Shown: in pieces, positions 12,012 through 64,000 of the stretch
Layout: every line of letters starts with the position of its first letter
How positions within the stretch are numbered: the stretch's first letter is position 1
Notes under the pieces: model-generated
What the model saw: the letters and a program-made list of their open reading frames with translations, nothing else
Told to the model about the DNA's origin: nothing
The model's database searches: none
Position numbers and translations under genes: made by a program
Origin: Squalus acanthias
Taxonomy: Eukaryota
Assembly (NCBI GenBank): GCA_030390025.1
Contig: CM059432.1
Span: 38,194,001-38,258,000 of the forward strand
Direction of reading: 5' to 3'
DNA: 64,000 nt

Positions 12012-13201
12012 TCATCGGCAGCGCTGTGTTATGAGACGTTCACGAATGGCCCTTGTAGAAGCAACATTGAGCGCCTCCCTCCCACATTGTTGCTGCTCCT
12101 CCTCCTCTTCATCCTCCTCTCCATCTCCTCCTCCTCCTCCTCCTCCTCCCCCTCTTCCTCCTCCTGAGGTGGTCCACCAATTCCTGGTGGCAATGGCTGG
12201 GTCCTCAGAATTGCGAGGTTGTGAAGCATGCAGCACACAACTACGAAAACCGATACTCGATCAGGGGAGTACTGCAGGGCTCCTCCAGAGTGGTCAAGAC
12301 ACTGGAACCGTTGCTTCAAGACTGCCGATCGTCTGCTCAATGAGGTTCCTAGTAGCGCTATGGCTCTCATTGTATTGGAGCTCAGCAGGAGTGTTGGTGG
12401 TTACGGAGCGGTGTCATCAGCCAGGTGCAGAGTGGATAACCCTTGTCCCCGAGGAGCCAGCCACGAGGTTGATGCGGTGGTTGGAACAGTGCTGGGACAC
12501 CAGTCTGGCACAGGATGAATGAATCGTGGCTGCTGCCAGGATAGCAGGGCATTGACGGCGAGGATGCGCTATCTGTGGTCGCACACCAACTGGACGTTCA
12601 GAGAGTGGTAACCTTTGTGGCTGCGGAACACCTCTGCATTTTGATGAGGTGCCCACAATGCCACGTGCGTGCAGTCAATGGCGCCCTGAACCATGGGGAA
12701 GCCCGCTATCCTAGCGAAGCCACATGCGCATTCATGCTGTTTGTCTCGGGTCATGGGGAATGAGATGTACTCCCTTCTCCTTCTGTAGAGAGCATTTGTG
12801 ACCTCCTGGATGCAGCAATGGACAGCGAACTGGGAAATGTTCGCAATATCCCCATTTGAAGCCTGGAAGGAGCCACTGACGTAGAAATTGAGAGCCACCG
12901 TCACCTTCACTGCCACCAACAGAGACGTCCTGGTCCTGAGCTGAGGTTGGAGCTCTGGCTGCAGGAGGTGGCAGAGCTCAGTGACCACCTCCTTGCTGAA
13001 GTGGAGCCTTCTGAAACACTGCTCCTCGGACAGATGAATATAGGAGAACTGCTCCCGGAATACCCTGGGAGGGTAAGGTCTCCTGTGGAGAGCCCTGTTG
13101 GCCCTCCTCCCTCTGGCCACGTTTTCCACTCTCTCTCTCCGCCTCCGCTGCCTCCGACGGTGAAGCTGGAGGGTGAGGACCTGTGCCAGTACAGCCCCCA
13201 T
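12012..13201 (-). pseudogene. Harbinger (HARBI1-like DDE) transposase, disrupted
   Basis: [71 protein letters not shown], acidic tail. Confidence 0.92.
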
Positions 13202-23679: not shown

Positions 23680-24918
23680 TTAGGTGAATCTGGCATTGAT
23701 TAGGCCATTCCTGGTGTTACGGGCAGGAATGTGCTCGCGTGCTGATCGAACTGGGTCAGCTGCCTCCTCCAGGTCTTCCTCATGCTGAACCTCATTCTGC
23801 TCCTCCTCCTCCTCCTCTGAAGAGGCTGTGCGCTCTGCACCTTCTTCCTCATGCAGCGCTAATCCTCGCTGCAGTGCGATGTTGTGCAGGGTGCAGCAGA
23901 CAATGACGATTCTCGAGTCCCTGGCTGGTGCGTACTGAAGGGCTCCACCAGATCTGTCCAGGCATCTGAAGTGCATTTTGAGCAACCCTATTGTTTGCTC
24001 TATGAGACTTCTGGTAGAAATGTGGCTTTGATTATAACGCTCCTCAGACTTGTTTGATGGCCTCCTCATCGGTGTCATTAGCCATGTCTTCAGGGGATAG
24101 CCCTTGTCTCTAAGGAGCCAGCCGGAAAGTTCATTTGGCGGTATGAAGAGCTGAGACACAGTGGAGTGGCGCAGGATGTAAGAGTCATGGCAGCTGCCAG
24201 GGAACTTGGCTCACACATGCATGATGCTCTTCCTGTAGTTACACATCAGCTGGACATTAAGGGAGTGGAAGCCCTTGCGGTTGACAAATACTGCTGGGTT
24301 CTGATGGGGTGCCCTGATGGCCACATGTGTGCAGTCGCTGACGCCCTGCACCCGTGGGAAGCCAGCCAGATTGACAAAGCCGAGTGCCCGCTCGGTAACA
24401 CTGGCTTCATCAGTGGAAAAGTGGATGTAATTGGTGGACTTGTCAAAGAGGGCATCGGTGACCTGCGTGATGCATCTGTGGGCGGCCGACTGGGAGATGC
24501 CGCTAATGTCTGCAGCAGATCCCTGGAAGGACCCTGAGACAAAGAAGTTGAGGGCTGTGCTGACTTTGACAGCCACTGGTAAGGCATGTCCACCCGCTCC
24601 TCTGGGCTGCAGGTCTTGATTGAACATTGTGCAAATATCTGCGACTACTGTCGCGAAAGTCTCAGCCTCCTTTGGCACTGCTGCTCAGTCATGTTGAGGA
24701 AGCTCATCCTCTGCCTGTAAACCCTGTGTTGGGGGTATCTCCTGCGGCCCGGTGGAGCCCTGCACTGATGGCCTCTGCCCTGTGCAGCAGCAGGTGGTTG
24801 AGGAGAAGGTTGTCGCTCTTGTTGTTGGTGCTGCTGGTGTGCCTGGTTCTGCTGCTGCTGCGGGATGATCATCTTCCAATTCTGAGGACCAGGATGAGAG
24901 AGAATAAATCGCTCCCAT
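23680..24918 (-). pseudogene. Harbinger transposase of a second family, frameshifted (element extends to a TIR-like end near 25697)
   Basis: [65 protein letters not shown]. Confidence 0.9.
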
Positions 24919-34680: not shown

Positions 34681-36076
34681 TGTGCAGTGTGCAATGGACG
34701 ATGAAACCCTAACTGAAGGGTTAATGATGGTGATGCAATCACTTATTGAGCGATAACCTGTGGTTGATTTCCTGAAAATAATGGAGTCACCATATATTAT
34801 AGCATTTTAAACATTGCTTAAAATGATCTTTCAGCTTTGGAATGAGTTCCCTTAAATCAAAGGCTCTCAATTGCTGTCAGGGGATGGCCCTGAATTGTGT
34901 CTTATTAACCACAAACTATTTTTTTCCAACACATGATGAAAGGCAGTCATATTCACAGTCTCATGACACCAGTTAAGCAGCATTCAATCATCAGTCAAAA
35001 TGCTGTGGGAATGATGGTAAAATCATACCTGTTTTTGTCAGCACTCCTTGGCAAATAACAACAGGAGACCGCAGGGTTTGAATGTAATTATCTTTGGAGG
35101 TAGAACACTTTGCTTCAGGCAACATGGCTCGAGCAAATTGTTCTTTTTCTGAAAATAAAATCCGTGGTGAAACTTGTTTTCATTACTGCTTGCACACCGC
35201 GCAAACAATTTTGTTAGTGGCTTAATGGTTGGTCTGTGCTTGATTTTAACAGAGGGGAAAAAGTAGGGATCACAAGCATTAAATTAAATTCTGAGATTGT
35301 TAGTAATGTCACTATGTTCACTGCCTGGCACTATAGCTTTCTATTATTTTTCCCTAAATGACGATTCAGCAGGGAGTTAGATGATAAGGTACATATTTTA
35401 TGGTCTTTCCTAGTGTGAGCAGAGAGATAGTTGCCCCGATATTAATCTAAAGGTGGCTTCGAGCGGGGGTGAAGGGGGGGCGTGGAATTGCGTGGGGGAA
35501 ATATGGAAGTCAACTCAGTGGGTCGCAATCTGCCATCTCAACTCAATTGTACCAATTAATTTTGACTTCTGTAAGGGGGCGTGTCTCAGACGGTGCTGGT
35601 GCGAGGTTAGGCCTTCGTTGCCTATACTATTGCTTGCTCTGGTCTCCGGCCAGCCTTTTTGCAATAAGCACCTGTGAGTGGTTCGACCCACTCGCCCTTA
35701 CGGTTCTGACACCTGGACTTAGATGCAAGGAGCAGTAATGCAGAGAAAACTCAAATAGACCCGGTTGAATAGCACGAAATGAATATCTTTATTGCATGGC
35801 GTCTAAAATCATGAAATACATGTCATAGGCGCAAATCAAAGAGAGTACAAGTATACACACGTTCATAAAGCTTGGTCTATGGAAATGGAGAACACACGGC
35901 ACATCGTAAAAAGGGGAACACATTATACCTTAACCTTATTAAAAAACCACCCTCCCTTAACAATATACCTAAACTACGTCTGGATTTGTAGGATCGTAAA
36001 ACATGCTCACCACTCGGTTTACTTCGGAGATTTTAAAATGAGGCACTCAGCTCGTTTCGCTGCAGCGCCTGAGTTC

Positions 36077-37793
36077 TGTAAGGGTTTTTGTCTCTCAGCC
36101 TGTGAGATTCGTGTGGCTCTGTGCAGCCCGGATGCTAGTGCGGGTTTAGGCCTTGTTGCCTGTTCTGGTCTCCAGCCAGTCTGGGAGCACTAGACACACC
36201 TGTGAGTGGTTCGACCCACTCGCCTTACGGTTCTAGACACTGGACTTAGATGCGAGAGCAGTAATGGAGATGAAACTCAGGTAGACTCGGTTGAATGGTA
36301 CGAAATGGAAAATCTTTATTGCATAGTACTTAAGATTACGAAATACATGTCATACGCACAGATTAATGACAGTACAATCTTACACGCAGTTATGTAATTA
36401 ATTTCAGGGAAACGAGGAACGAACGACACATCGTAAATGGGGGCACACATTACAATTATCCTTAATACTTGAAACCCTCCCCTATCAATATCTGTCCTAA
36501 GCTAGATTCGTAGGATTCGAGACTCATGCTCACCACTCGTGATAACTCGGAGAATTCCGAAAACTCTGATCGGATGTTTTTCACTGCAGCGCCCACGTGT
36601 CGATCAGGGGGTCTCCTGGCCCCACTTGTTTACTCGTTTCTGCTCCGGCGAGCAGGCTGGAACGTCTGCTGTCATGAAGATCTGTGTTGTCCTCGGAGTT
36701 CCGACTCTACTCAAAAAAGAGTCTTCCTGTGCCCTCGCACTGATGCGATAAAATTTGAAGAAGAGTCTTCCTGTGTCAGTTCTGTAGAACTCAAAGAAGT
36801 CTTCCTGGCAAGGAAAATGTCGATTCGACCTACAGGCGCGGTCGGGGCTTACTGACCGTGGCGATAAGTATGGTCTTCTTCTCTTCTCATCTCATCTCAT
36901 CTCATCTCATCTCGGGCCTTCGGTTCCAACACCGTTTACCGACTTATCGGAATGGTGCGCCCGCTTCAAGGCTTCAGAGCCCAGTTCTACACAGGTCTTC
37001 GCGACACGACACGAGGCAGATCCGAGCGGATCGTAAAGTTCAACAGTCTTTTGAAAAGAGACACGAGGCGAGCAGGAACAAGACGGCGAGTCAAGAGCAG
37101 CCACGAGGATAAACACCAGCAAGATAAGAGTCAACCGAATAAGAGCCAAGAGTCAAGAGAAAGATGGACGGTTTGGAGCTTGTAATTATAGTGTAAAATC
37201 TTCCGTTTCCCGCCCAACCTTAATGTCTTTTCTTTTGTTAGGGTTTGGCGCTCAAAATGTCTCGTATAGGGTGATCTTCGTTTTAATGGGTTTCGGGGCT
37301 ACTCGTAAATGTCTGAGTACCTGTTAATATTTCTCCCATTGTTTAATCGGTCGGTGTTCTCCCCGGAGGGGTTTTGGGGCTTCCAAGTGTTTTCTGTAAC
37401 TACCCACTAACGGCTCTCTCATCGTAGAGTCGTTGGGATTTTACATATTAATGTCTTTGGATGGGTTCTTGATTACTTGGTACAATAGCTTTTATTCGTA
37501 CCTGGGAGACCGGTTTCAGTATTTATGTGTATACTGTAAACCCATGATGTCTCGTGTATTATCTTAAATGTGCTGAGTCTTAATCGATCTTGCACAAATG
37601 TTTACTGGAACGCCATCTTGTCTGCCTGTCGAAAAGTCTAGAATGTTCTGCCACGAGGTGCGGTGGCCATTTTACAAGCTGCTTGTGTCCACTTTAAAAA
37701 CCTGACAGCATTCTGCTGAAATAAAAGCTGTTTGAACGAAACTATGTGTTTTTCTCCTTATTAATAAAATCGCGATATATTGCGAATTCTACA
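36077..37793 (-). repeat. 3' LTR of provirus
   Basis: Minus-strand TGTAGAATTC...CCCTTACA; PPT AGGAGGG at ~37796-37802; nearly identical to 47273-48982. Confidence 0.93.
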
Positions 37794-37970
37794 GTCCCTC
37801 CTGTTGATGCGAATAACTCCGCTTATCGTATCAAAAATATTGTGGTGAGCAATATTATCTCGATTTTCTCCGAATCCAGAAAATTTAATCCCATAACTTA
37901 AACTATCTAGGGTCTTTGCGTCGTCCTTATTTCCCAAGAAAATTACATTTTTTATCACCGTAGGCATCAT
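37761..37970 (-). CDS. Small 69-aa ORF crossing the PPT into U3 (possible accessory ORF)
   Basis: ATG-initiated, between env and the 3' LTR; no recognisable homology. Confidence 0.25.
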   Translation of the reverse strand: MMPTVIKNVIFLGNKDDAKTLDSLSYGIKFSGFGENRDNIAHHNIFDTISGVIRINRRDCRIRNISRFY

Positions 37971-38241: not shown

Positions 38242-40594
38242 TCACACGGTGCTTTCGTCGTGCACGCGCACGTAACGTTCTCGCCACTCTCCCGTGTTTT
38301 CATGCTTGGTGAGGCGTTTGCCTCTTTTACAATGTACGATCAATAGGTACACTACGATAAAAACTTGGCATACGACTAAAATGTGGGAGGCTATTCTGAT
38401 CCATGAAGGCACTTCAATATTGGTGAACAGATTCCACCACGGTGGAATTACTATATCCAGAATGTCTGTTCCTATTTCGACAGTTTTCTGTTCTAATGTG
38501 TAAAAATGTTTCTGTGACACCGCGACGGCTTTTAAAAGCTTGGTGAGGTGTTCAGGGAGAGGGGGAATGAGGTATCCAAAATGCGCGACGAATCGCTGCA
38601 AGTCGGTGAAATTCTCTTTTACTGTTAGATGAACAGTGGATGGTTCAGGGATTGGGACAATTCGCCGTTGTGCTACTTGAACTTCCGCCCTGGGTTTGAA
38701 ACAGAAACTGCTGTCACTCACCGGACACCGGCTACGGTTTCCATGCTGGTAGTGTTGCGCTGCAGTGGTAACACAATATGTTCCACCCCCGATGTATGCT
38801 ACCTGCGGAGGCACATGATCTTGTGCCATTGCCTCCATGGTGCAATTCATGGACTTGGCGCCAGCCGTTCTGAACCCGCACTGTGGTGTTAAAAAGGCAT
38901 TCAAGTGCTGGGGACACAGTATTATGTGTGCTCCCCTGCCACGACAACCAGAGAGATCTGTACCTGTCATCGTTTGCTCCCAGCGGATGACGTAAGGTGG
39001 AACCGCTGCATAGCGAATGTGGGCTCCCCCCTGAATGACACCAATGTTCTCTACCCGATACACCAGGGCGGGCTTTGCTGTGTCGCCCAAAACCGGCATA
39101 CGTAATACTATACCCATGATAGTATGGTTTGATCGTCCGCAGTCCACGGGGACTGGGTAAGCTTCTGAAGCTAGCCTGAGCTGGCACGGGCTTAATGCGT
39201 TCTGAAAAGGCTGGAGCGCCCGCAGGTGTTTGTTACTTATCCAGGACGGGACCAAACCTTGTTTTAAATCCTCCAAATTACTGCGGCCCTCGCCCAGTAA
39301 CCACGCCCCGTAAAGCACGCACACCTCGTTCTGCGCAGCTTGATCGGATGCATTCCGATCTTCCCTAATCAGGGCATTTACCGTCTTTGCATGTTTCTCC
39401 AACTCTGCTATAATTTCCTTTAAATGGAGAGTCATGGCTTGGTCCTCGTGTAAACCCGACCCAACCATTTTATTCTCATCTGTTAGAATGTCTTTTAATT
39501 GCGTCTTTAAACCATTAATCTGGGTCTGCAGCTCCACACTGTCTAGAGCGTTGACCGCAGATGTACCCGTGTTAAAAGCAGTGAACACGTCGTTCACTAC
39601 ACCCCTTCTTTGCCTCCCTACTTGATCCAAAACTTCATGTGGTGCGGTGTACAAACTTGTTTTATCAATTTCCGCGAAATCGAATTCGTAAAATTGTCTG
39701 AACATCTTGGTCAACAGGACCTGATACAACTGTTCCGTCTTTTTGGGGCACCACTCTGGTAACCGCACCTCGGTGAGATTTAAAATCACCGAGGCCACCG
39801 CGTAATGTACCCCCTGAAATAGTATATGGTCTGTGGGGGACCAGTACCAAACCATTCCCGGGTCCCTTACTAGTTTTAGGGCACCCTTCCTCTTCAGCTA
39901 GAACCACCGGAATCGTGGGCGGGGCTTTGCGTGGGCGCGTAATGAGCTCAGTGGCATTTACCGGGATCGAAGAGTATGGGTCTCCGCACCCCCTGGTGCT
40001 CGCATCCCACCTCATCCCCTGTCCGTTATCCTGCCATTGGTTAATGAAAAATATGGAGATGCCTTTGGGGCAAGCGTACTTTGACCCCCACATGCATACA
40101 TAAATTCCCTCATCCGGTTCCCACCATTTGTCCCAACAGACTCTCACTTGTCCGTTTGTCCCCGTAATTGTTCGATGGGTATTATTACCCAGTCGTTCCC
40201 ACTCGACCGAAGAGTTCCTCATGTTTTTACTCAGCTTTCGCAGCCACCACCATCGGCTCAATGGGACATTCCCATTACAAGTCAAACAAATCTGTTTGCC
40301 GACGGTGACGCTGATCCTAGGTGCGATGATCCGTACTTTGGGGCACATTAAAGAAGTCTCTTGGTAGGCAAACCCCGATGTGCTAGAATACTCCGTTGAG
40401 TTTGTTCCCAGCCATCCTGGCCACCTTCCCTTGTGGAAATAGGTGGTGGTCTCCTCAGCCTCCCGTCTTCCGGTCCCATCCACCGCGATGGGGACCGTGT
40501 CCCCGGAGCATCCAAACACCACGACATCCTTGGTGCGACCTCGATAGGCCAATCCACATCCAATTGCCGCGAGCAATACTAGAATTCGTTCCAT
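38242..40594 (-). pseudogene. env: Envelope glycoprotein (~783 aa once repaired; one +1 frameshift in the homopolymer at 39835-39839)
   Basis: Signal peptide MERILVLLAAIGCGLA, splice acceptor AG at 40609-40608, furin site RQRR (39604-39615), fusion peptide and heptad region, Cys-rich region, TM IASHILVVCQVFIVVYLLIV, basic tail. Confidence 0.88.
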
Positions 40595-40894
40595 CCTTCC
40601 TTGGTTCCTGTGATCAGATAGAATGAGGTAGCCAGCCTCGCAAGAGTCTCTGGCTTTTGTGAAGGGTGAGCGGGTCCCCTGACCTCGCCTCACGTAAACT
40701 TCAATGTTCACTGAATAAACTTTAACTAGACCTATCTCTAAAGCTCCCATCATTTTACCATTTTCTGTTAAAATTAAACTACAAACTTAACCTTATTTAA
40801 AACTATAAACTTATTCTTAACCTTAAGCTATAAACCTAGAAACTTATCCTAAACTTATTACTGTACAGCGCCGCCCGTTCCCAGGGCGGCCCCT

Positions 40895-43800
40895 TTAAAT
40901 TCTGAGAAGGCTGCTGCGAGCTCTTCCCGACGGTGGGAGGGCACTGACCCCTTCCTTTGATCTGCCGCAGCCTGTTGCTGCACTGACCCCTTCCTTTGAT
41001 CTGCCGCAGCCTGTTGCTGCACTGACCCCTTCCTTTGATCTGCCGCAGCCTGTTGCTGCTGCGATGGGACTGGGCCCTACCTGGGCTGCCTTAACCTTAA
41101 GCCTGCACCTTGGGGCAGTCTGGGGACATGACCACATTTTCCTGGGCTGGGGTGCTCGACCTGACCTACGAGGAGTTGTCGGGGGCAGGAATCCCAGGAC
41201 CGACGGACCGGGTTCCGAGACTTCCACCGGGACGACCTGTGGTCCCACCACAGTCGCTGGCTCCGCCCCCCCCTGACTCCGCCTCCCTGACTCGGGACTT
41301 GCAGCTTGTGGCACCGCCCTGCTCAGCCCAGCAGGCGGCCCTTCACTCGCAATCCCTACCTCCCCCGAGGGCAGGACGTTCAAGGTGGGCGGCTCGGGCT
41401 CTGAGGTTTTCACCATCACGCCCTGTGGTCTCACAGTGGCTGGCTCCGCCTCCCCTAGCTCCTCCCTCCTGTGTTCGGGACCTGCAGCCTCGGTGTCCAC
41501 CCTGTGTGGATCTCTATCTGCAGCCCCTGTCCTCCCTATACCTGAATCGGGGGCGACCCTTGCGTTCCCCGATTCCCACTCGCCCTCATCACTATCCTCA
41601 TCTGACTCGAGTTCCGGGAACTCTCCCTCATCTGACTCCCAACCCCACAAAAATGTTTCACAATTTTCCAGGATGTCTCCTCCCCTGATGCAAGCTGCTT
41701 TGCCTGCCTGTGTGCCTTGTGGTCCTACCTGGGGCTGCGAGTCTCCACTCGCAGGGTTTGCCCCTGTGGTTTTCCCTTGTGCACCTGGCTTGTACAGTTT
41801 GCACTGGTTTACATGGAACCACTTAGTGCGCCGAGGTACCTTTACGGCGTAAACCATGGGACTCGCCTTATCTACAATGTTGTAGGGCCCCATATACAGT
41901 GGTTCCAGACTCCCTACTCTGGCGTAGTTTCTGACCATGACCTGGTCTCCTACTTCCCACTCCCGCGTTTTGCGGGGTTCCAGCAACAGGCGATTGCCCT
42001 GATGCTGCCTTCCCATGTTCCCAGCCGCCTGCTCATAAACCTGCTTCAGGCGCTCCAAGAGGGTCTGGGCGAACTTGTCCCTGCTTATCTCTTGGAGCTG
42101 ACCCTCAGTGAGCACCGGCGCTAGCACATGGGTGGGGGTTCGCATGATCCTCCCAGTCATCACCTCGTGCGGGGAATACCACGTACTTTTCGACTGACTG
42201 GCCCGGACCCCCATGAGGACTAAAGGCAGAACCTCCGCCCATTTTTGGGGCGAGTTCCTAGTCTCTTTCCTCAATTTCTCCTTCAGGGTCCGGTTCATGC
42301 GTTCAACAATCCCGGATGACTGGGGATTGTGTGCTACGTGCCACTTCCCTTCAATGCCCAAAAGCATGAGGGTGTTCTGCATCACCTGGCCGGTGAAATG
42401 ACTCCCTTGGTCTGACTCCACAAAACGGGGAAGTCCCCACCGCGAGAACACTTCCCGACCAAGATTTTTGCAGTACCCAGTGCCGTAGCTGTTCGACAGG
42501 GGAAGGCTTCCACCCACTTGGAAAACACATCCACCAAGACGAGGCAGTATTTATAGCCTCCCTGGGTGGTGGGCAGGGGCCCTATATAGTCGATCTGTAT
42601 CGACTGCCATGGTCCCTCTACCCTTCTTACGTGCCCCATGGGCACTTTCCTTTTCTGGGGGTCTGGGTTGTTTGCAGCGCACACGAGACAGTTTGCACAG
42701 AACTCTCGGACCTGTTCCCTGAGCCCTGGCCACCATCCCGCTTGCTCTACCCGTTGCCAGGTAACCTCGGGCCCGGGGTGCCCTGCCCCTGGTCCCTCGT
42801 GAGCCAACTGGAGGAATTCCCTCCTGTGCTGCTGCGGCACAACCCACTGCTCCTCGCGGAACAGCATGCCTTCCTTAACTGAGAGGGTTGCCGTACTGTA
42901 CGGACCCTCTACGTGCTTCCCCTCAGCAATGGTTTTTAGGACTGCTTTTAGGGCGGGATCCTGGGTTTGGACGGTCTTAAGGTCTAGGGGCAATGCTACC
43001 CTGGAGTTCCCGGGATTCCCGTCCCTGCCTTGGATCGCTGCCATGGGTCTGGTCCCATAGGGGTCCCAGAAAATGCCGTTGCGGGCACCTTCCCTGGCTA
43101 GCGCATCCGCCTGCTGGTTGCCCTCCCCACGGGGCTCTGTGGAGGAGTGAGCCTTCACCTTATGGATGAAAATCTCCCCTTCCTCCCCTACTGCTGCTAG
43201 GATCTTTTCCAGCAAGGGCTTCACCGTTAAAGGTCGCCCGTCCGCGGAGGTGTATCCACGGCGGGACCAAATGGCCAGGTATTCCGTACACGAATTACAT
43301 GTGAACATACTGTCCGAGCAAATCGTGTATGGGGTTGGGAAAATGTCTGGGTGGGTAACAACGTACACCACTGCAGACAGCTCAGCCTGCTGCGCGCTCA
43401 TGGTGCTAGGGAGCTTGATCGCCAGGGCAAGGTTTGCCGCAGGGTCATAAACTCCACACCCTGTGAGTCGTTCGCCAGCAGATACTGTGCTAGAACCATC
43501 AACATAAATCTCGCGCCCAGTGGGATGTATCCCGGCCCGCAAACCTATGTTGACGTCCCACACCCCTTCCACCGAACATTGGTGGGCTGTACCGGGGTAT
43601 ACCAAATTGGCCGCAAGCCTGGGCTCGCAAAGACCTTTTACTCTAAGATCCATCTGGGAAAGAAGAAGGGTCCAGCGCGCAATACGCACGCTGCTTACGG
43701 TCCCATCTTTAATTCTCCCATCTAAAAGCATCTTAGTTGGTGTGTGATGGGTGAGGAGAGTGATGGGAGAGAGCCCTGTGAAGATCGCTGATCTTTTCAC

Positions 43801-45459
43801 AGCCCAATGCGTGGCTAAAAGGTGCCTTTCGCAATTGGAGAAACTTCTCTCCACATCCGTTAACACCCTGGACGAATAGACAACCGGCCTCAGCTTGCCG
43901 TGGCGCTCTTGGAGCAGCACAGCGCTCAAGCTGTCCCCGCTGGCAGCTACCTCCAGGAAAAACTCCTTCCCCCCATCTATGGCCCCTAAGGCTGGCGCGG
44001 TCTGCAGATCCCTTTTTAACTTCTCGAAGGCTGCTTGGCAGCCCTCGTCCCAAGACCACTCCACTCCCTTATGGAGGAGTCGGAGGAGCGGCGCCGCTGT
44101 GGCCGCATAGTCTTCGATAAAATCCCTGCAGTAACCGGTCAGTCCCAAGAAGGACCTCACACCCCTTAAATCGTTAGGAATTGGTAACTCTTGCACCGAC
44201 TCCCTCCTAGCCTTATCTATGGCTCTTTCCCCAGCGCGAATGGTCAGCCCCAGGAATTTTACTTCCTGCTGACCGATACGTGCTTTCTTAGGGTTTACTT
44301 TAAAACCCTTTCTCGCTAGCAGCTCCAATAACTCGGCCAGCAGTGATCCATGCTCCTCCCTTGAATCCGTAAATAGGAGCAAATCATCCACGTACTGCAC
44401 TATCTGATTGGGCTGACTAAACTCCTTTAAACTTCCTGCCATACATTGATGGAAAATACTGGGGCTGTTGTGGAAACCCTGTGGCAGACAGTTCCATGTG
44501 TACTGTTGTCCTTTGAAAGTAAAGGCAAACTTGTACTGGTCCTCTCGCCGTAGCGGGATGGACCAAAAACCGTTCGAGATATCCAGCACCGTGAACGTGG
44601 TCGCGGACGCTGGGATACTCCCTATTAGGTCAGCAACTGCTGCTACCGTGGGCGCGCAGGCGGGAATGTTACTGTTAAGGACTCTGTAGTCCACCGTGGC
44701 TCTCCACGAATTATCCGGCTTCCTAACCGGCCATAATGGGGAGTTCACGTGTGTGGCTATCGGCCTCAACACGCCCTGCTGCACCAAGGAGGACATTGCT
44801 GTCTCCATATCGGGTTCTGCTTCTTTGGGGAAGTTATACTGTTTTTGGGGCCGGGTCATGAGGTCCCCATCTACGCTGACCTCAAACCCGGCAACCCTCC
44901 CACAATCGTGCTTGTGGGTTGCAAACGCGTGCATATTATCTGACACGTACGTTTGCATGTCCGTTGGGACATCTGCGACCATAAGCCCGAGGTCGTAGCC
45001 TCCGGATGGCTGCATGGTACACAGGACCCCTGTTTCTTCCTCCCCCGGAATTACCACTACCTTACCTTTTTCACTCTTAGCCCCCCAGAGACAATGATTT
45101 CTGAGGTCCACGAGGATCCCGTGTCCTGATAGGAGATCGGACCCGAGGATACCTCTACCACCCCCCTCCTGCCATTCCATCAATATGCACTTCCACTTGA
45201 TGTGAAGTGCCCCCAAACGAATGGATAGCGGAAAGGAGAACGCGCCAGCCTGTTCTTTTCCCGTGAACCCCGCTAATGTGAATGGGACCTTGGTAGATAG
45301 CGGTGAGTCAAAAGGGCTATCTGTATGAATCACGGTGCAAGAAGCTCCCGTGTCCAACAAATAACTACCCTTCTGTTTCTCTACCTCCATCTCCACCAAG
45401 GGTCGCTTCCACGCATCATAGCTGAGCGGACACAGGTAGACGGGCTGCGCGGGCTCTAG
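40895..45459 (-). pseudogene. pol: Pol polyprotein PR-RT-tether-RNaseH-IN; one 1-bp deletion near 42456
   Basis: LLDTGAS, LPQGFHNSP, YVDD, tether LEVAAS, RNase H YVDGSS/AQQAEL/CSDS/GNQQAD, IN HHCC, IDYIGP, SDQGSHF, VERMN, GPY. Confidence 0.93.
40941..41057. repeat. Three exact 39-bp tandem repeats in the pol 3' extension
   Basis: GCACTGACCCCTTCCTTTGATCTGCCGCAGCCTGTTGCT x3. Confidence 0.95.
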
Positions 45460-47268
45460 TCATTGGGTATGGTTAGACGGGCCTGCGGCACCTATGGGGC
45501 CGGTAGCAACCGCCACTTTTCCATGTGCACTCATGAAGTTGCGCATGGCTCCCAACACTGATTCGAGGTCGTCGGGAGGGGTGGGTGCACTAGCTTCCCT
45601 AACAGAGACAGGCATCTGGGCTTGGGCTGCGGGATTTTTATCCCTGGAATCCTTCCAAGGGTTCCCGCAGTTCTTGCGCCAGTGCCCTGTCCTCCCACAC
45701 CCGTAACAAGCATTACTTGCCTGCGGGGCGCGGTTACCCTCCTGATGCCACTCCTTTTGAGCCGGGGCTGCGGGTCGTACCTCATGTACTTTTCCCTTAA
45801 GGGGACGTGCTCCCATACCCCTTATATTGCGGTATCCTACCGTGAGTCGATTTAAGACCGACTCTTCCATAATGTTGGGGTCAGTGGGATCAAACCACGC
45901 TTTTGCCTGCTCTCTGACGGCTGGCAAACTGTTGGCTACTATGCACCTAAGCCAATGAGTTAAACCGACGCCGTCCACAGCGTCGCGCTCTGGCGCACCT
46001 GGACAGCTGCGTTGATATACTGGCCACAGCCTGTCGGCAAAAACCTTCGGGGGTTCTCCCTCCATCTGCACTGTCTGTCCCACTCTAGCAAACGGACCTT
46101 CATCGTCCGTCCCCAACACTTCTAGGACCTCATTTTTTAATGCCTCATATGTCTTGGTTCCCCTCTTGCTCTCGTCCGAGAGACACTGAAGGATTGAACT
46201 GCCTAACGAAAATAACAGCATTTTTGCTGTTTCCCCATCATCGCAGCCGTTAATGGCTGCGGTTTGCTCAACTTCTCTGAAATGTACGGAAGGGTCGTCT
46301 GACTCGGTCAGCTTCCGTACGTGATTTATCATAACTCTCAGCTGGTGTGAGCTGTGAGGCAACACAAGCTGGTTGAGGAGAACCCCTGGTTCCTCCCCAC
46401 CGTTTCTGTTTGGGCCCCTTTTTATACCCGTAACTGGACACAACGGTCCCTTTTCCACTTCTTCCTCAGTGGGCTCTTTTGTTTCTTCTACTACTTCCTC
46501 CCTTACCCAGGTTTCCGAATAGCTGGGTGGCGCGGAGGGCGTAGTGGCTACTACTTCCTTTGCTTTACTTGGTGGGAATTTCTGAAACTCCTCATCTACT
46601 AGCGGCTGGTGTGCTGACGGACTGATAAGGCACACCATGCCGTGCGCTTTGTTCACGGCCCTTTTAAGGTGCTCTATCTCCTTTTGGCAGGCGCTATGAT
46701 CGGCCCCCTGAAATTTATCCTCAAGGGCCATCTTATATGCCGCCCTAACCCCCGTTAAGCTCTCTTCCTGGGCTCTTATCTGGGCAGCTTGGCGGGCACA
46801 TCGTTCCTTTAGTCTGCCCTCACTTAACTTTGCCTCAGTGACCTGGCACTCGAGGTAATCTATTTTTGCTTTGTGGTGACTGGTGATTTCCTGGCGTTCT
46901 CGGTGCAGCGCACTTAAATTCCTAATGAGCAACTCCCCTCCAGAGACTTTCTCATCCATTTCCTCCTCTAAATGCCTGATCCGAGCTGTTTGCGCTGTAA
47001 TGACCTGGTTTGAAATCTGGACCTGCCTTTTGTAACACATTAACCAGACTGCTTTCTCGACTGTCTTTTTATGTTCCTTACTATCTGTCCACCTCTCGGC
47101 TGCCTCTAGTGGACTCTTATCCGCTAACAGGTCACTTATCCATTTCTTAGTTAAATTTACCTTTCCGAACACATAATCTGCTATCTTTTCCTGCATAACA
47201 TTTCGCACATTCACACCAAAGTCTAACACACTACCCTCTCGCTGCCAGTGTCCTGCCGCGGTCGCCAT
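45460..47268 (-). CDS. gag: Gag (602 aa, intact): coiled coil, PSAPPSY late domain, capsid-like region, CCHC knuckle
   Basis: Open ORF between LTR and pol; CYGCGRTGHWRKNC; ends TGA-CTAG in frame with pol. Confidence 0.92.
   Translation of the reverse strand: MATAAGHWQREGSVLDFGVNVRNVMQEKIADYVFGKVNLTKKWISDLLADKSPLEAAERWTDSKEHKKTVEKAVWLMCYKRQVQISNQVITAQTARIRHLEEEMDEKVSGGELLIRNLSALHRERQEITSHHKAKIDYLECQVTEAKLSEGRLKERCARQAAQIRAQEESLTGVRAAYKMALEDKFQGADHSACQKEIEHLKRAVNKAHGMVCLISPSAHQPLVDEEFQKFPPSKAKEVVATTPSAPPSYSETWVREEVVEETKEPTEEEVEKGPLCPVTGIKRGPNRNGGEEPGVLLNQLVLPHSSHQLRVMINHVRKLTESDDPSVHFREVEQTAAINGCDDGETAKMLLFSLGSSILQCLSDESKRGTKTYEALKNEVLEVLGTDDEGPFARVGQTVQMEGEPPKVFADRLWPVYQRSCPGAPERDAVDGVGLTHWLRCIVANSLPAVREQAKAWFDPTDPNIMEESVLNRLTVGYRNIRGMGARPLKGKVHEVRPAAPAQKEWHQEGNRAPQASNACYGCGRTGHWRKNCGNPWKDSRDKNPAAQAQMPVSVREASAPTPPDDLESVLGAMRNFMSAHGKVAVATGPIGAAGPSNHTQ
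47250..47267 (-). promoter_or_regulatory. Primer binding site, tRNA-Ser-like
   Basis: TGGCGACCGCGGCAGGAC, 5 nt after the LTR end; resembles Ser PBS patterns (TGGCGTAGTCGGCAGGA, TGGCGACGAGG). Confidence 0.6.
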
Positions 47269-47272
47269 TTTC

Positions 47273-48982
47273 TGTAAGGGTTTTTGTCTCTCAGCCTGTG
47301 AGATTCGTGTGGCTCTGTGCAGCCCGGGTGCTAGTGCGGGTTTAGGCCTTGTTGCCTGTTCTGGTCTCCAGCCAGTCTGGGAGCACTAGACACACCTGTG
47401 AGTGGTTCGACCCACTCGCCCTTACGGTTCTAGACACTGGACTTAGATGCGAGAGCAGTAATGGAGATGAAACTCAGGTAGACTCGGTTGAATGGTACGA
47501 AATGGAAAATCTTTATTGCATAGTACTTAAGATTACGAAATACATGTCATACGCACAGATTAATGACAGTACAATCTTACACGCAGTTATGTAATTAATT
47601 TCAGGGAAACGAGGAACGAACGACACATCGTAAATGGGGGCACACATTACAATTATCCTTAATACTTGAAACCCTCCCCTATCAATATCTGTCCTAAGCT
47701 AGATTCGTAGGATTCGAGACTCATGCTCACCACTCGTGATAACTCGGAGAATTCCGAAAACTCTGATCGGATGTTTTTCACCGCAGCGCCCACGTGTCGA
47801 TCAGGGGGTCTCCTGGCCCCACTTGTTTACTCGTTTCTGCTCCGGCTAGCAGGTTGGAACGTCTGCTGTCATGAAGATCTGTGTTGTCCTCGGAGTTCCG
47901 ACTCTACTCAAAAAAGTGTCTTCCTGTGCCCTCGCACTGATGCGATAAAATTCGAAGAAGAGAGTCTTCCTGTGTCAGTTCTGTAGAACTCAAAGAAGTC
48001 TTCCTGGCAAGGAAAATGTCTATTCGACCTACAGGCGCGGTTGGGGCTTACTGACCGTGGCGATAAGTATGGTCTTCTTCTCTTCTCATCTCATCTCATC
48101 TCATCTCATCTCGGGCCTTCGGTTCCAACACCGTTTACCGACTTATCGGAATGGTGCGCCCGCTTCAAGGCTTCAGAGCCCAGTTCTACACAGGTCTTCG
48201 CGACACGACACGAGGTAGATCCGAGCGGATCGTAAAGTTCAACAGTCTTTTGAAAAGAGACACGAGGCGAGCAGGAACAAGACGGCGAGTCAAGAGCACA
48301 GGAGCACCACGAGGATAAGAGTCAACCGAATAAGAGCAAGAGTCAAGAGAAGATGGACGGTTTGGAGCTTGTAATTATAGTGCAAAATCTTCCGTTTCCC
48401 GCCCAACCTTAATGTCTTTTCTTTTGTTAGGGTTTGGCGCTCAAAATGTCTCGTATAGGGTGATCTTCATTTTAATGGGTTTCGGGGCTACTCGTAAATG
48501 TCTGAGTACCTGTTAATATTTCTCCCATTGTTTAATCGGTCGGTGTTCTCCCCGGAGGGGTTTTGGGGCTTCCAAGTGTTTTCTGTAACTACCCACTAAC
48601 GGCTCTCTCATCGTAGAGTCGTTGGGATTTTACATATTAATGTCTTTGGATGGGTTCTTGATTACTTGGTACAATAGCTTTTATTCGTACCTGGGAGACC
48701 GATTTCAGTATTTATGTGTATACTGTAAACCCATGATGTCTCGTGTATTATCTTAAATGTGCTGAGTCTTAATCGATCTTGCACAAATGTTTACTGGAAC
48801 GCCATCTTGTCTGCCTGTCGAAAAGTCTAGAATGTTCTGCCACGAGGTGCGGCGGCCATTTTACAAGGTGCTTGTGTCCACTTTAAAAACCTGACAGCAT
48901 TCTGCTGAAATAAAAGCTGTTTGAACGAAACTATGTGTTTTTCTCCTTATTAATAAAATCGCGATATATTGCGAATTCTACA
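47273..48982 (-). repeat. 5' LTR of provirus
   Basis: TG...CA termini, near identity with 36077-37793. Confidence 0.93.
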
Positions 48983-50196
48983 GTGTCACGTGTTTGGAAC
49001 GGTTTCTGCACCCTATCTGTTTACTCTCGCTGCTGCAAAAGGCAAGCCAGACTCCCTGATGTCATGAAGCAGTCGATGGACTCAAACCGTCTTAGAATTC
49101 AAAGAAGAATCTTCCTGTGTTACGGTACATGTAGAAGTCGGTAGAACTCAAAGGAAAGTTCTGTCGTTATATTTTCGGGCGCGGTCGGGGTTTACTGACT
49201 GTGGCGGCACGTGGAATTTCTTCTCGTCTTTCTTCTCGTCTTTCTTCTCGTCACTCGGGCCTCTGGGTCCAGACACCGTTTACCGACACTCGGGATGGGG
49301 TACCCTGTTACTTGCCCTTGTCGAGGCGGCTCGTTCCGATTGAGCTCCACCCAACACTCGAATAACCGACCAGCACGGCTAAGAGTCAAGAGTCAAGAGA
49401 GTCCAGAGAATCAAGCGACCAAAAGTCCAGCCCCAAGGAAGAGTTCAGGAAGAGAGAGAGGGTTCAGCCCGAGTCAAGAGAGTCAAGAGACCGATGGACA
49501 TTTGTCCTCTATAGTTATACCGTTCTGTCTGCTTTATCTCCCGCTCAAATCTAAATGTTTATCCTTTGTGTGATTTTGGCGCTCAAAACTCCCAGCATGG
49601 GACGATTATCTTCTTAACGGGTTTCGGTAGCACCTGAAACTGGCCAACTATCTGTTAATGTCTTCCCCATTGTTGAGCCAGCCAGGATGTGTATGAATCG
49701 TCTCCTCGACTGGTTTTGGGGCCCCCCGAATACTGGCTTAATCACCCACCAATGTCTCTCTCATTGTTGAGCCGGGGGGGCATTTGTGTATTGATGTGCC
49801 TAGATGGGTTCTCGATGGCCCAGTTCAATGATCCTTACTGTGCATAGGAAAATGATTCCAGCACTTATATCATTGATATTGTTCAAAATGCAAACGGGTT
49901 GCATCCTGTCTTTATCAATGTGTACCGAGTATGATCCAATCTCATACTGAATGTATATTCGACGCCATCTTGTCTGCCCACTGTGTCTCTGGAAGCTTCT
50001 GCCACGATGCGCGGCGGCCATTTTACAGGCTTCTGTGTCCTTTATTATCAGGACAGCATTTCGTTTAATAAAACTGATCAATTGAATCTGCTTCTCTCAT
50101 GTTATTTTGAATCGCGATAATTGCGAAACTCTACACTTCCGGGTTTCGCGTCTCCAAGCTGCGCAGCAGGCATGACGTGCACCCGCATGATGGGAG

Positions 50197-51858
50197 CTCT
50201 CTCCCGTGCACCTCTCTCCCGTGCACCTCTCTCCCGTGCACCTCCCACCCGTGCACCTCTCTCCGTGCACCTCTCTCCCGTGCACCTCTCTCCCGTGCAC
50301 CTCCCTCCCGTGCACCTCTCTCCCGTGCACCTCTCTCCCATGCACCTCTCTCCCGTGCACCTCTCTCCCGTGTACCTCCCTCCCGTGTACCTCTCTCCCG
50401 TGCACCTCTCTCCCGTGTACCTCCCTCCCGTGCACCTCCCTCCCGTGCACCTCTCTCCCGTGCACCTCCCTCCCGTGTACCTCCCTCCTGTGGACCTCCC
50501 TCCCGTGTACCCCTCTCCCGTGCACCTCTCTCCCGTGCACCTCTCTCCCGTGTACCTCAATCCCATGCACCTCTCTCCCGTGTACCTCTCTCCCGTGCAC
50601 CTCTCTCCCGTGTACCTCCCTCCCGTGTACCTCTCTCCCGTGCACCTCTCTCCCGTGCACCTCTCTCCCGTGCACCTCTCTCCCGTGCACCTCTCTCCAC
50701 CTCTCTCCCGTGCACCTCTCTCCCGTGCACCTCTCTCCCGTGTACCTCAATCCCGTGCACCTCTCTCCCGTGTACCTCTCTCCCGTGCACCTCTCTCCCG
50801 TGCACCTCTCTCCCGTGTACCTCTCTCCCGTGCACCTCTCTCCCATGCACCTCTCTCCACCTCTCTCCCGTGCACCTCCCTCCTGTGCACTTTCCTCCCG
50901 TGCACCTCTCTCCCGTGTACCTCTCTCCCGTGTACCTCTCTCCCGTGCACCTCTCTCCCGTGCACCTCTCTCCAGTGGACCTCCCTCCCATGGACCTCCC
51001 TCCCGTGTACCTCCCTCCCATGTACCTCTCTCCCATGCACCTCTCTCCACCCCTCTCCCATGCACCTCTCTCCCGTGCACCTCTCTCCACCTCTCTCCCG
51101 TGCACCTCTCTCCCGTGCACCTCTCTCCCGTGCACCTCTCTCCCGTGCACCTCTCTCCCGTGCACCTCTCTCCCTTGTACCTCTTTCCCGTGCACCTCTC
51201 TCCCGTGCACCTCTCTCCCTTGCACCTCTCTCGACCTCTCTACCGTGCACCTCTCTCCCGTGCACCTCCCTCCCGTGCACCTCTCTCCACCTCTCTCCCG
51301 TGCACCTCTCTCCCATGCACCTCCCTCCCGTGCACCTCTCTACTGTGCACCTCTCTCCCGTGCACCTCTTTCCCGTGCACCTCCCTCCTGTGCATTTTCC
51401 TCCTGTGCACCTCTCTACTGTGCACCTCTCTCCCGTGCACCTCTTTCCCGTGCACCTCCCTCCTGTGCATTTTCCTCCTGTGCACCTCTCTCCTGTGCAC
51501 CTCTCTACCGTGCACCTCCCTCCCGTGCACCTCTCTACTGTGCACCTCTCTCCCGTGTACCTCTCTACTGTGCACCTCTCTCCCATGCACCTCTCTACTG
51601 TGCACCTCTCTCCCGTGTACCTCTCTACTGTGCACCTCTCTCCCGTGTACCTCTCTACCGTGCACCTCTCTCCCATGCACCTCTCTCCCGTGCACCTCTC
51701 TCCACCTCTCTCCCGTGCACCTCTCTACCGTGCACCTCTCTCCCGTGCACCTCTCTCCTGTGCACCTCTCTCCACTTCTCTCCCGTGCACCTCTCTCCTG
51801 TGCACCTCTCTCCCGTGCACCTCCCTCCTGTGCATTTTCCTCCTGTGCACCTCTCTCT
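50197..51858. repeat. 15-bp minisatellite, left block (CCCGTGCACCTCTCT)n
   Basis: Direct reading; about 110 units with occasional 10-bp variants. Confidence 0.97.
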
Positions 51859-51866
51859 TTTTCTCT

Positions 51867-53428
51867 TCAGCATCCCAGAGTACTAAAAGAGGTAGCCATG
51901 GAAATAGTGGATGCATTGGTTGTCATCTTCCTAAATTCTATAGATTATGAAACAGTTCCTGCAGATTGGAGGGTGGCATATATAACCCCACTATTTAAAA
52001 AAGGAGGGAGAGAAAAAACAGGGAACTACAGACCGGTTAGCCTAACATCAGTAGTAGGGAAAATGCTAGAGTCTATTATAAAGGATGTGATAACAGGACA
52101 CTTAGAAAATATCAACGGGATTAGACAAAGTCAACATGGATTTATGAAAGGGAAATTGTGTTTGACAAACCTACTAGAGTTTTTTGAGGATGTAACTGGT
52201 AGAATAGATAAGGGAGAACAGTGGATGTGGTATATTTGGATTTTCAGAAGGCCTTTGATAAAGTCCCACATAAGAGGTTAGTGTGCAAAATTAAAGCACA
52301 TGGGATTGGGGGTCATATACTGGCATGGATTGAAAATTGGTTAACAGACAGGAAACAGAGAGTAGGAATAAATGGGTCTTTTTTGGGGTGGCAGGCGGTG
52401 ACTAGTGGGGTACCGCAGGGATCAGTGCTTGGGCCCCAGCTATTCACAATATATATCAATGATTTGGATGAGGGAACCAAATGTAATATTTCCAAGTTTA
52501 CTGACAACACAAAATTAGGTGGGATTGTGAGTTGTGAGGAGGATGCAAAGAGGCTTCAAGGTGATTTGGACAAGTTGAGTGAGTGGGCAAATACATGGCA
52601 GATGCAGTATAACGTGGATAAATGTGAAGTTATCCACTTCGGTAGAAAAAACAGAAAGGCAGAGTATTATTTAAATGGTGCTAGATTGGGAAATGTTGAT
52701 GTACAGAGGGACCTGGGTGTCCTTGTACACCAGTCACTGAAAGCAAACATGCAGGTGCAGCAAGCTGTTAGGAAGGCAAATGGTATGCTGGCCTTCATTG
52801 CAAGAGGATTTGAGTACAGGAGCGAGGATGTCTTACTACAGTTATACAGGGCCTTGGTGAGACCACATCTGGAGTACTGTGTGCAATTTTGGTCTCCTTA
52901 CCTAAGAAAGGATATACTTGCCATAGAGGGAGTGCAGCGAAGGTTCACCAGACTGATTCCTGGGATGGCAGGAATGTCGTATGAGGAAAGATTGGGTCGA
53001 CTAGGCGTGTATTCACTAGAGTTTAGAAGAATGAGAGGGGATCTCATTGAAACGTATAAAATTTTGACAGGGCTAGACAGACTGGATGCAGGGAGGATGT
53101 TTCCCCTGGCTGGGGGGGTCTAGAATGAGGAGTCACAGTCTCAGGATACGGGGTAGGACATTTAGGACTGAGATGAGGAGAAATTTCTTCACTCAGAGGG
53201 TGGTGAACCTGTGGAATTCTCTACCACAGAAGGCTGTGGAGGCCAAGTCACTGAATATATTTAAGGAGATAGATAGATTTCTAGACACAAAAGGCATCAA
53301 GGGGTATGGGGAGAGAGCGGGAATATGGTATTGAGATAGAGGATCAGCCATGATCATATTGAATGGCGGAGCAGGCTCAAAGGGCCGAATGGCCTACTCC
53401 TGCTCTTATTTTTCGATGTTTCTATGTT
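51867..53428 (+). mobile_element. CR1 LINE, 5'-truncated, inserted in the minisatellite
   Basis: GNYRPVSLTS, DFQKAFDKVPH, GVPQGSVLGP, LVRPHLEYCVQFWSP; TTTCTATG-type tail. Confidence 0.93.
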
Positions 53429-54296
53429 TCTCTCCTGTGCACCTCTCTCCTGTGCACTGCTCTCTTGTGCACCTGTTTCCTGTGCATTTTCCTCCTGCGC
53501 ACCTCCCTCCCGTGGACCTCCCTCCCGTGGACCTCCCTCCCGTGGACCTCCCTCCCGTGCACCTCTCTCCTGTGGACCTCCCTCCCGTGCACCTCTCTCC
53601 TGTGGACCTCCCTCCCGTGGACCTCCCTCCCGTGGACCTCCCTCCCGTGCACCTCTCTCCTGTGGACCTCCCTCCCGTGGACCTCCCTCCCGTGGACCTC
53701 CCTCCTGTGGACCTCCCTCCCGTGGACCTCCCTCCCGAGGACCTCCCTCCCGTGGACCTCCCTCCCGTGCACCTCTCTCCTGTGCACCCCTCTCCTGTGC
53801 ACCTCTCTCCTGTGCACCTCCCTCCTGTGGACCTCCCTCCAGTGGACCTCCCTCCTGTGGACCTCCCTCCCGTGCACCTCTCTCCTGTGCACCCCTCTCC
53901 TGTGCACCTCTCTCCTGTGCACCTCCCTCCTGTGGACCTCCCTCCAGTGGACCTCCCTCCTGTGGACCTCTCTCCCGTGGACCTCCCTCCTGTGCACCTC
54001 CCTCCTGTGGACCTCCCTCCAGTGGACGTCCCTCCTGTGGACCTCCCTCCCGTGCACCTCTCTCCTGTGCACCCCTCTCCTGTGCACCTCTCTCCTGTGC
54101 ACCCCTCTCCCGTGGACCTCCCTCCCGTGGACCTCCCTCCCGTGCACCTCTCTCCTGTGGACCTCCCTCCCGTGGACCTCCCTCCTGTGCACCTCCCTCC
54201 TGTGGACCTCCCTCCAGTGGACCTCCCTCCTGTGGACCTCCCTCCCGTGGACCTCCCTCCCGTGCACCTCTCTCCTGTGCACCCCTCTCCTGTGCA
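53429..54296. repeat. 15-bp minisatellite, right block (CCYGTGGACCTCCCT variant dominant)
   Basis: Direct reading. Confidence 0.97.
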
Positions 54297-62230: not shown

Positions 62231-64000
62231 GTGCTAGAAATTTGGTATCGCCCTGGTTGGGGCGCTAAATTTTAAAAAGTTGTAGAATTAGCGCCAGGCG
62301 CAAATCCTTCTGACCTCCCGCTAAATTGATTGTTAGCGCTCCGAGAGAGAACTGGAGCGCTAAATCGAGCACTAATCACCTAACTTAGGGTAATACACAC
62401 AGAGCGGGGCGCTACCCACAGAGCGATAACCAGTTTCAGGTGCAGTCCAATCGGACTCATCATTCACACTGGCTCCTTCCAGTTCTTAAAGGGGAGGTTG
62501 AAGATTCAGCACAACCTCATTCTCAACATTGCTGGCTCTGAAGGCGACCTCCAAGCAACTCAACAGCTACACCTCTTATCCTCATGGCTGATCCCAGTCC
62601 CAGGGAGAGAGCTCGTCATTTCAGCAACCAGGCATTGGAGGCAATGGTCGTAGCGATCGAAAGAAGGAGGGCAGTGCTGTTCCCGGCCACTGACAGGAAG
62701 CCATTGCCCCAGGTCTTCAGGACAATGTGGAGGGAAGTGGCCCAGGACATCTCGGCCAGCAGTGTGGTCCTCAGGACCCTCACACAGTGCCATAAAAAAT
62801 TCAACGACCTCACTCGGGTGGTCAGGGTGAGTCCATGCTTCAACAAGTCCTACATACCAGCATCTGAACCTCAGTCTGTACACACTGCACAAACCACCAC
62901 ACCCCCATCACTCACCCACCAAGCATCTCCACCTACTCAAACTCACATCCACATCTCACGCCTTGCCTACAATCACAGCTATTCAACTATGGCAGGCACA
63001 TCTCCCAAACACATAGCTGCACGCTCACTCACACACTTTCCTTTCTCTTGCAGGCCAAACTGGGCCACAATAGGAGGGAGCAGCAATGAACAGGCGGGGG
63101 TGAAGTGGACATCCAACAGCTTACAGACCTGGAGGAGTGAGTGCTGAGAGTCATTTGGTGCCAGGTGGTGGGCACCGTGGCCGTCGGCGACGTTGACCCC
63201 TTTGGGGACAACAATGGTATGTCCACCCCCCCTCTTTTTCTCATCCCACACATCACCAGCCTTTCTCACTTTCCAGCTCATTATAATGTCTACATTCCTT
63301 GCTCCCTTCCTGCCCCCCTGCCCTCACCTTAACATGAGTCTTGTGCCTTTATGCTTTCAGGTAATCAGCATCCAGCTGACCAACCTGTCCCTGAGCCTCC
63401 CAGTGAGAGTGAGGCGGGAGAAGAGGAGGAGGAAGAAAGCACCGCGTCACTGCATGTTACACCCGCAGGCGCCACCTCAGATACTGGGACTACGTGATCT
63501 TTAGAGGCAGGTTTAGTAGAGGGGTCTGCACTGGGTGATGCACCGGGGACGAGTGGGCTGCAGCAAGGCCAGGGGGAAAGGGTAGCTCGGGAGACAGATC
63601 CCCAGAGGGCTAGGTCGCACGCGAGTTCTGCTGCAGAGGACTCAGATGAGGACCTCGATGGGGAGGCGTTCACAAGAAGGGTGATGGCCATGCACACCGA
63701 GATGATAGGTGCAATGGCAAGGGTGCCCGGGAGTCTGTCGGAAATGGTAAGGAGCGTGAAGGAGTCCACCTTCAACATTGCTCAGAGCTCTGCGCACGCC
63801 ATGGAGCCCATCCTTGGCAGTCTGCCAAGGATGGTGGACTCCCAGAGAGACCGTGGGGACCCAGACCTCATGTCGCGTGTCCTGGGCGATGTGACAGCAT
63901 CCATTGCAGCACAGGCAGAAGGTAGGCAACGTCTTAGAACTGCAATGCAGTCTATGCTTGGTGCCATCGATTCTCAGACTGCTCTCATGCAGTCTCAGCT
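62231..64000 (+). mobile_element. Harbinger transposon left part with Myb/SANT-like pseudogene (exons 62584-62826, 63054-63216, 63361->64000)
   Basis: RERARHFSNQALEAMV, QCHKKFNDLTRVVR; same intron positions as the 9823 copy; TIR-like GTGCTAGAAATTTGGTATCG. Confidence 0.85.

Follow-up and report, generated by a model that had tools for sequence, protein, structure and literature searches.

A probable immunoglobulin-like domain ahead of a predicted F-type fusion core in the envelope protein of a Squalus acanthias endogenous retrovirus

The stretch of Squalus acanthias DNA analysed here (64,000 nucleotides; assembly GCA_030390025.1, contig CM059432.1, positions 38,194,001 to 38,258,000 of the forward strand; hereafter the window, with positions counted from its first letter) carries on its minus strand an endogenous retrovirus (ERV) whose envelope protein (Env) very probably contains an immunoglobulin (Ig)-like domain, placed between the signal peptide and a core resembling viral fusion (F) proteins. 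The features of this element, which has a long terminal repeat (LTR) at either end, are as follows.

47270-48984, minus strand: 5′ LTR, about 1.7 kb, with TG...CA ends (alignment to the 3′ LTR; ends read).
45460-47268, minus strand: gag open reading frame (ORF) with one CCHC zinc knuckle (Pfam zf-CCHC, E 0.024).
42382-45459, minus strand: first part of pol, with protease, reverse transcriptase (RT), tether-type RNase H, second RNase H and the N-terminal part of the integrase (Pfam).
40895-42550, minus strand: second part of pol, in another frame, with the remaining integrase, a GPY/SH3 region and a long low-complexity tail (ORF list and Pfam).
40544-40594, minus strand: signal peptide (predicted) over Env residues 1-17, judged from a hydrophobic leader in the sequence.
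40346-40543, minus strand: conserved N-flank, residues 18-83, with C29 and predicted beta strands (AlphaFold model; conservation).
40043-40345, minus strand: Ig-like domain, residues 84-184, with C106, W117, G163-x-Y165-x-C167 and the extra conserved C84, C103, C153 and C175 (Pfam, ESM, profile, model, alignment).
39884-40042, minus strand: linker (residues 185-237) containing C203 and a stretch rich in Pro and Thr (sequence; substitution rates).
38242-39897, minus strand: frame of the F-like core, with an RQRR furin-type site at 39604-39615, a fusion-peptide-like stretch and a transmembrane (TM) helix at about 38320-38412 (sequence and ESM).
36074-37795, minus strand: 3′ LTR, preceded by a purine-rich tract (LTR alignment; ends read).

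The env gene runs from Met 40594 to 38242 and is split over two frames, 39665-40786 and 38242-39897, which overlap at 39665-39897; the Ig-like module lies in the upstream frame together with the first residues of the core (C238 onward), and most of the core lies in the downstream one. A sequence-only reading of this stretch had treated module and core as one Env and, although the window copy has them in two frames, they share a single frame in all three of the other copies fetched as a check. Both env and pol are frameshifted, and in that sense broken, in the window copy. The element family is young and abundant, with at least 150 near-identical copies: a comparison with the Env N-terminus gave 5,908 first-look candidates, and each of the 150 that were scored is 97-100% identical; frames of at least 800 codons are open in eight of the top 20 matches. 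The two LTRs are 98.2% identical over 1725 nt (47270-48984 against 36074-37795), and the Pfam families found in pol are RVP, RVT_1, RT_RNaseH, RNase_H, Integrase_H2C2 and rve.

The motifs ISVTVGKQICLTC, WWWLRK and DEGIYVC, previously reported between leader and core, are all found in the single minus-strand frame that starts at Met 40594. Ig domains are marked by a B-strand cysteine, a C-strand tryptophan and an F-strand D/E-x-G-x-Y-x-C motif, in that order, and in the I and V types the two cysteines are separated by about 55-75 residues. Here, this order is followed by C106 (40277-40279), W117 and C167 (40094-40096), with 61 positions between the cysteines, as had been counted. The distance from leader to core is about 220 residues (18-237) rather than the ~250 first given, and the range originally proposed for the domain, 40085-40342, falls within it but covers only residues 85-170, as the domain probably extends from about residue 84 to 184-189, last strand included. 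Eight cysteines are conserved in residues 29-203; extra disulfides are possible among C84, C103, C153 and C175, and the pairs C103-C153 and C84-C175 would fit the Ig register.

These positions are well maintained in an alignment of 38 N-termini, of which this genome supplied 35, skate and sawshark three and a further source one, less one row with a stop. All 38 rows have C106, W117 and G163, while C167 is found in 37 and Y165 in 36, and the four extra cysteines are kept in 35-38 of them. The D-x-G-x-Y-x-C motif thus holds at its glycine, tyrosine and last cysteine, but its first position is D in only eight rows, E in 29 and K in one. Ratios of nonsynonymous to synonymous substitution rates (dN/dS) were estimated from pairs among eight natural open frames of different subfamilies, such pairs being non-independent and the saturated ones having been dropped. 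The Ig-like domain had a median of 0.12, from 20 usable pairs out of 28; F2 had 0.11 (10 of 28) and F1 0.09 (26 of 28), while the N-flank (residues 18-83) gave 0.18 and the linker, the least constrained part of Env, 0.46 (27 of 28). The Ig-like domain is under purifying selection and is a maintained part of Env.

Several lines of evidence suggest that the module is an Ig domain. Of 20 relatives, 18 match Pfam Ig_3, at E 0.002 in the best case, and the ten best family-bearing matches by ESM all belong to the Ig clan (top score 0.92). When the family profile was globally aligned with hhalign to host Ig_3 domains, it scored 20.0 over 88 columns, against a mean of 2.5 and a maximum of 7.1 for 60 shuffles, and control comparisons of non-Ig modules and a cadherin with the same host profile gave at most 7.3. 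The strand order in the AlphaFold model fits A-B-C-D-E-F-G, the strands of the N-flank being interleaved with the domain, and Ig-domain chains or entries (by title) make up 49 of the top 50 VIA rows of the structure search. Other results are weaker. The Ig_3 match of the single window sequence, the outcome of the Pfam check that the sequence-only reading had proposed, is weak by itself (E 0.012, 16.5 bits, the cut-off being 30), and the curated Pfam cut-offs (30 bits for Ig_3, 26 for V-set) are not reached, with 13.4-17 bits where scores are given. In local mode, the profile score of 19.5 barely exceeds the maximum of 40 shuffles (19.0). Likewise, the structural check gave the expected strand order but no Foldseek match in PDB or BFVD at E<=0.001, and AlphaFold on a single sequence produced no usable fold (pLDDT 33.9). 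Taken as a prediction, the module is probably an Ig beta-sandwich. Its former assignment to the V/I-set survives in part: the profile is closer to host Ig_3/I-type than to V domains (global scores of 20.0 and 5.0), although the weak PDB matches of the module are V domains, including those of CD8alpha and CRTAM (immune-protein matches at E 0.5-1.3, not significant).

The core, in turn, is predicted to be an F-type class I fusogen, in agreement with the original description of an F-like Env. Leader, RQRR furin site, hydrophobic fusion-peptide-like stretch and TM helix are present, and the ESM features of the core resemble Gypsy/Baculo_F clusters (0.94-0.96) and paramyxovirus Fusion_gly clusters (0.93), a good but not final match, as the recognition value of 1841 lies below the 2300 mark. 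Pfam and PDB sequence searches with the window core gave no match; one relative matches Baculo_F at E 0.0011.

When 1.84 billion proteins were searched with an Env profile, 56 matches were obtained, of which 27 were looked up and 24 could be named (sharks, coelacanth, frogs, eel), the closest named proteins being those of skate and sawshark. In all relatives that show the region, the core starts with CP...P-x-x-G-hydrophobic, while the preceding sequence differs, and near-identical core starts are joined to unrelated N-terminal modules in different families. As regards the survey of related env genes that had been proposed, the Cys/Trp/Cys pattern of the module is kept in 37-38 of 38 relatives, whereas in the wider set of Envs (sharks, rays, coelacanth, frogs, eel) the same slot holds other Ig-like domains, unrelated domains or nothing, the module being absent in P0047, P0052 and P0057. 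Among eight distant sets, the Ig-like modules of three exceed their own 15 shuffles, namely those of the P0014 family (P0014 is automatically named 'Ig-like domain-containing protein'), L057 and P0035, the last with a different Ig-like domain at a local probability of 80%. The L060 family, although related to P0014 (92%), has no score alone, and neither the frog pair nor Bombina scored. The P0014, L057 and L060 families are interrelated (92-95% through P0014), while the window family and the P0014 family are linked at a probability of only 1-4%, and profile comparison gave no link of the frog, Bombina and P0035 modules to other Ig-like modules. From these sequences, a common origin of all the Ig-like modules is neither shown nor excluded. 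P0013/P0025 and the families L068, L074 and L076 bear modules that are cysteine-rich or otherwise not Ig-like, and some of their cores are separated from a common node by only 0.03-0.07 substitutions. A quick, preliminary tree of the F core, with 36 rows and rooted at the midpoint, places the window's module in a single nine-row clade with a support of 100, of which it is the mark, and the sister side bears non-Ig modules.

Two side observations concern the same slot. Non-Ig, cysteine-rich or novel N-terminal modules are found on close F-like cores within this genome (L068, L072, L077, upstream of the core, L074 and L076). In addition, the annotated shark proteins P0006, P0009, P0012 and P0033 join env pieces to Niban, zinc-finger, cadherin or F-box genes, fusions that may be annotation artefacts or cases of exonisation.

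Regarding the type of element, layout and Env at first suggested a lokiretrovirus, as these share the order LTR-gag-pol-env, a dual RNase H, a Mononegavirales F-like Env with leader, furin site, fusion peptide and TM, and a similar core start, GP-x-x-G-x-x-L (PMC7947760, accessible part). This identity was dropped on comparison of RT motifs, since the window element has LPQGFHNSPSIFH where the seven lokiretrovirus RTs compared by eye all have PFGY-x-NSPAEF, and the Loki motifs are present in none of the 49 nearest RT matches. Furthermore, in the accessible part of PMC7947760, the lokiretrovirus core directly follows the leader, with no module, in 22 of 22 informative consensus Envs (one of 23 is incomplete), and lokiretroviruses were found in none of the six cartilaginous-fish genomes screened (Wang and Han 2021).

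By eye, and from the printed portions of the sequences, the RT motif of snakehead retrovirus (SnRV) reads LPQGFHASPGIFHQ and that of the window element LPQGFHNSPSIFHQ. The known systems closest on this side are SnRV with clade Huo and unclassified SnRV- and Ovex1-related ERVs (PMC6001957 and PMC4299795, as far as available). Some of these unclassified ERVs share the Gag zinc knuckle and the integrase GPY motif (PMC4299795, same portion). The window RT is 45% identical to that of P0094, whose start matches the SnRV sequence as far as it is printed. The nearest RTs are one relative at 92% and then uncharacterised coelacanth and amphibian proteins at 52-55%; several of the nearest Pol matches are automatically named NYNRIN-like, a label without a tree, and within PDB the RTs of foamy type and of MLV match best. 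In an RT tree built without Loki, ERV-L or foamy rows, a 27-row group was split from the gypsy rows at 100/100, deep forks being unsupported and the SnRV-like row not being sister to the window. An RT lies upstream in six of ten stretches of other families, five of retrovirus type and one gypsy-like and probably unrelated. ERV3 and ERV4 of Chong et al., which according to the available text of PMC4299795 are defined by the lack of a Gag zinc finger and of a GPY/F motif and by a 5-bp target duplication, were excluded, as the element has zinc knuckle and GPY and no matching target duplication. At the level of motifs, then, the element appears to be an SnRV-like, class III-like ERV with a putative F-type Env. 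By contrast, the SnRV-related ERVs described in the accessible part of 10.1101/2021.11.23.469661 carry gamma-type envelopes, and we found no F-like or Ig-bearing Env described among such ERVs in the portions of the sources available.

The architecture had been called unfamiliar, and the literature searched bears this out: no description of an Ig module on an F-like Env was found (subscription papers, Repbase and bioRxiv supplements being outside the search), nor any paper linking lokiretroviruses with immunoglobulin or linking snakehead retrovirus, env and fusion glycoprotein. The F-type Envs of errantiviruses and the F proteins of paramyxoviruses and baculoviruses are similar to the core in their ESM features but are carried by Ty3/gypsy elements or exogenous viruses, and the words 'immunoglobulin' and 'Ig-like' occur zero times in PMC13524379, on errantivirus F-type Env. 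The closest parallel besides lokiretrovirus Env is CrocERV31, also a non-class-I/II ERV with a host Ig-superfamily sequence under purifying selection, for which receptor binding was suggested (Chong et al. 2014, PMC4299795, accessible part). There, however, env has given way to the entire nectin3 mRNA with its three domains, which shares ~76% identity with the gene of the host, whereas the window Env has a single, highly diverged domain inside a fusogen, and no identifiable donor.

Indeed, no donor was found among the 60 host Ig domains compared (of about 300 listed), the best reaching 8.2 bits; consequently, any capture would be old. The earlier claim of a captured Ig domain is thus supported as to the Ig-like module in an F-like Env but not as to its source; the likely origin is an Ig-superfamily gene of the host, taken up long ago. 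Derivation of the module by duplication of the F-core beta-sandwich was also considered and has no support, as no core window scored above 17 on the profile of host Ig domains. Separately, residues ~10-130 of P0035 form a V/I-type domain without canonical cysteines on an F-like Env, presumably reminiscent of CEACAM/CD2 N-domains; this domain looks the least diverged, and P0035 is the best candidate for a recent, traceable capture.

Some other features of the element and the window deserve mention. The first ATG of the gag frame lies four bases past the CA end of the LTR, within a TGG-starting 18-mer (47251-47272, minus strand) that resembles a primer-binding site; for this reason, the true gag start is probably downstream. 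No matching target-site duplication was found in the flanks compared (36069-36075 and 48983-48989), and the element may be a recombinant of two copies. Directly beside the 3′ LTR, at 35630-36030, lies an older LTR-like stretch with 77% similarity to the LTR of this element, and a perfect 39-nt repeat (3.1 copies, 40941-41059) encodes 13-residue repeats in the low-complexity integrase tail. In four runs from related organisms, of which three are guessed to be RNA and the fourth is of unknown kind, contigs cover 28-30 of 30 env bins, which was not counted as evidence of expression. Elsewhere, two distinct 15-nt tandem arrays, at 50197-51857 (113 copies) and 53432-54294 (57 copies), have open frames on both strands, and an RT-bearing frame (52212-53123) lies between them. 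Fragments of a further retroviral integrase with SH3_11, a pair of DDE_Tnp_4 transposase pieces and a Myb/SANT protein lie at 2959-4164, 12569-13201, 23680-24210 and 62542-63147, and are likely of Harbinger type.

As for function, paramyxovirus F works beside a separate attachment protein (H, HN or G), the gammaretroviral surface subunit (SU) places a receptor-binding domain and a proline-rich hinge before the fusion machinery, and captured N-terminal domains occur on viral spikes. We lean, with little more than even confidence, towards a module that is an exchangeable attachment device on an F-type fusogen. The order of leader, module, Pro/Thr linker and F-like core with furin site and TM would have arisen by ancient uptake of a host Ig-superfamily domain into a slot ahead of the core. 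Once furin has cut the protein, the N-terminal subunit would retain the module, so that each spike has three; in the manner of Ig adhesion domains, the module may bind a conserved protein on the host surface, thereby attaching the virus and perhaps triggering the fusogen. It would then do the job of H/HN/G, or of the gammaretroviral receptor-binding domain and hinge; like SU and other spikes, this Env would have an exchangeable module on a proline-rich hinge, but the folds and the fusogen differ and the analogy is only functional. A targeting role is suggested because a conserved fusogen and a Pro/Thr hinge accompany a module that relatives exchange or drop, and attachment by the Ig-like domain because no separate attachment gene was seen between the LTRs among the window ORFs.

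It is unlikely, although worth weighing, that the domain is instead an immune modulator or decoy that, displayed on virions or on cells, engages immune receptors of the host and leaves attachment to the F core alone. Large DNA viruses use captured Ig domains as immune decoys. Envs devoid of the module show that the core can work alone, the weak PDB matches include CD8alpha and CRTAM, and the strong conservation of the module would fit a conserved host ligand; however, those matches are not significant, and the filling of the same slot by unrelated non-Ig domains better suits a general targeting slot. A module serving only as a structural cap or folding aid, which would stabilise or shield the prefusion trimer with no host binding, seems to us about equally unlikely. 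The eight conserved cysteines, a constraint equal to that of F2, the interleaved flank strands of the model and the four N-x-S/T sites counted all agree with such a cap, but the Pro/Thr linker that holds the module is poorly conserved, and in close relatives the module has been exchanged or is missing. Finally, a virus-derived, beta-rich domain with a chance or convergent C/W/C likeness and nothing captured is unlikely as well, given the full-length, in-register global match far above shuffles, the first or near-first rank of Ig in sequence, language-model and structure searches, and the clearer Ig domains in the same slot of P0035, the P0014 family and L057.

If the attachment reading is true, an F-type fusogen, usually dependent on a partner or binding by itself, would have gained a built-in targeting domain through domain capture. 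The joining of an F-type Env to SnRV-like RTs would also bear on how often retroviruses have acquired env, for which four scenarios are given in the accessible parts of PMC7947760 and PMC9040795. More tentatively, these elements could represent undescribed true retroviruses, distinct from Loki, of sharks, rays, coelacanth, frogs and eels, with a plug-in slot on an F-type Env where repeated capture of host Ig domains, beside unrelated domains, may have set receptor choice, merging the two-protein entry of paramyxoviruses in one chain. Surveys that look for Env with TM domains of gamma or beta type as seeds would probably overlook this family in spite of its many near-identical copies, and an isolated domain of 100 residues would allow the receptor question to be addressed without any virus.
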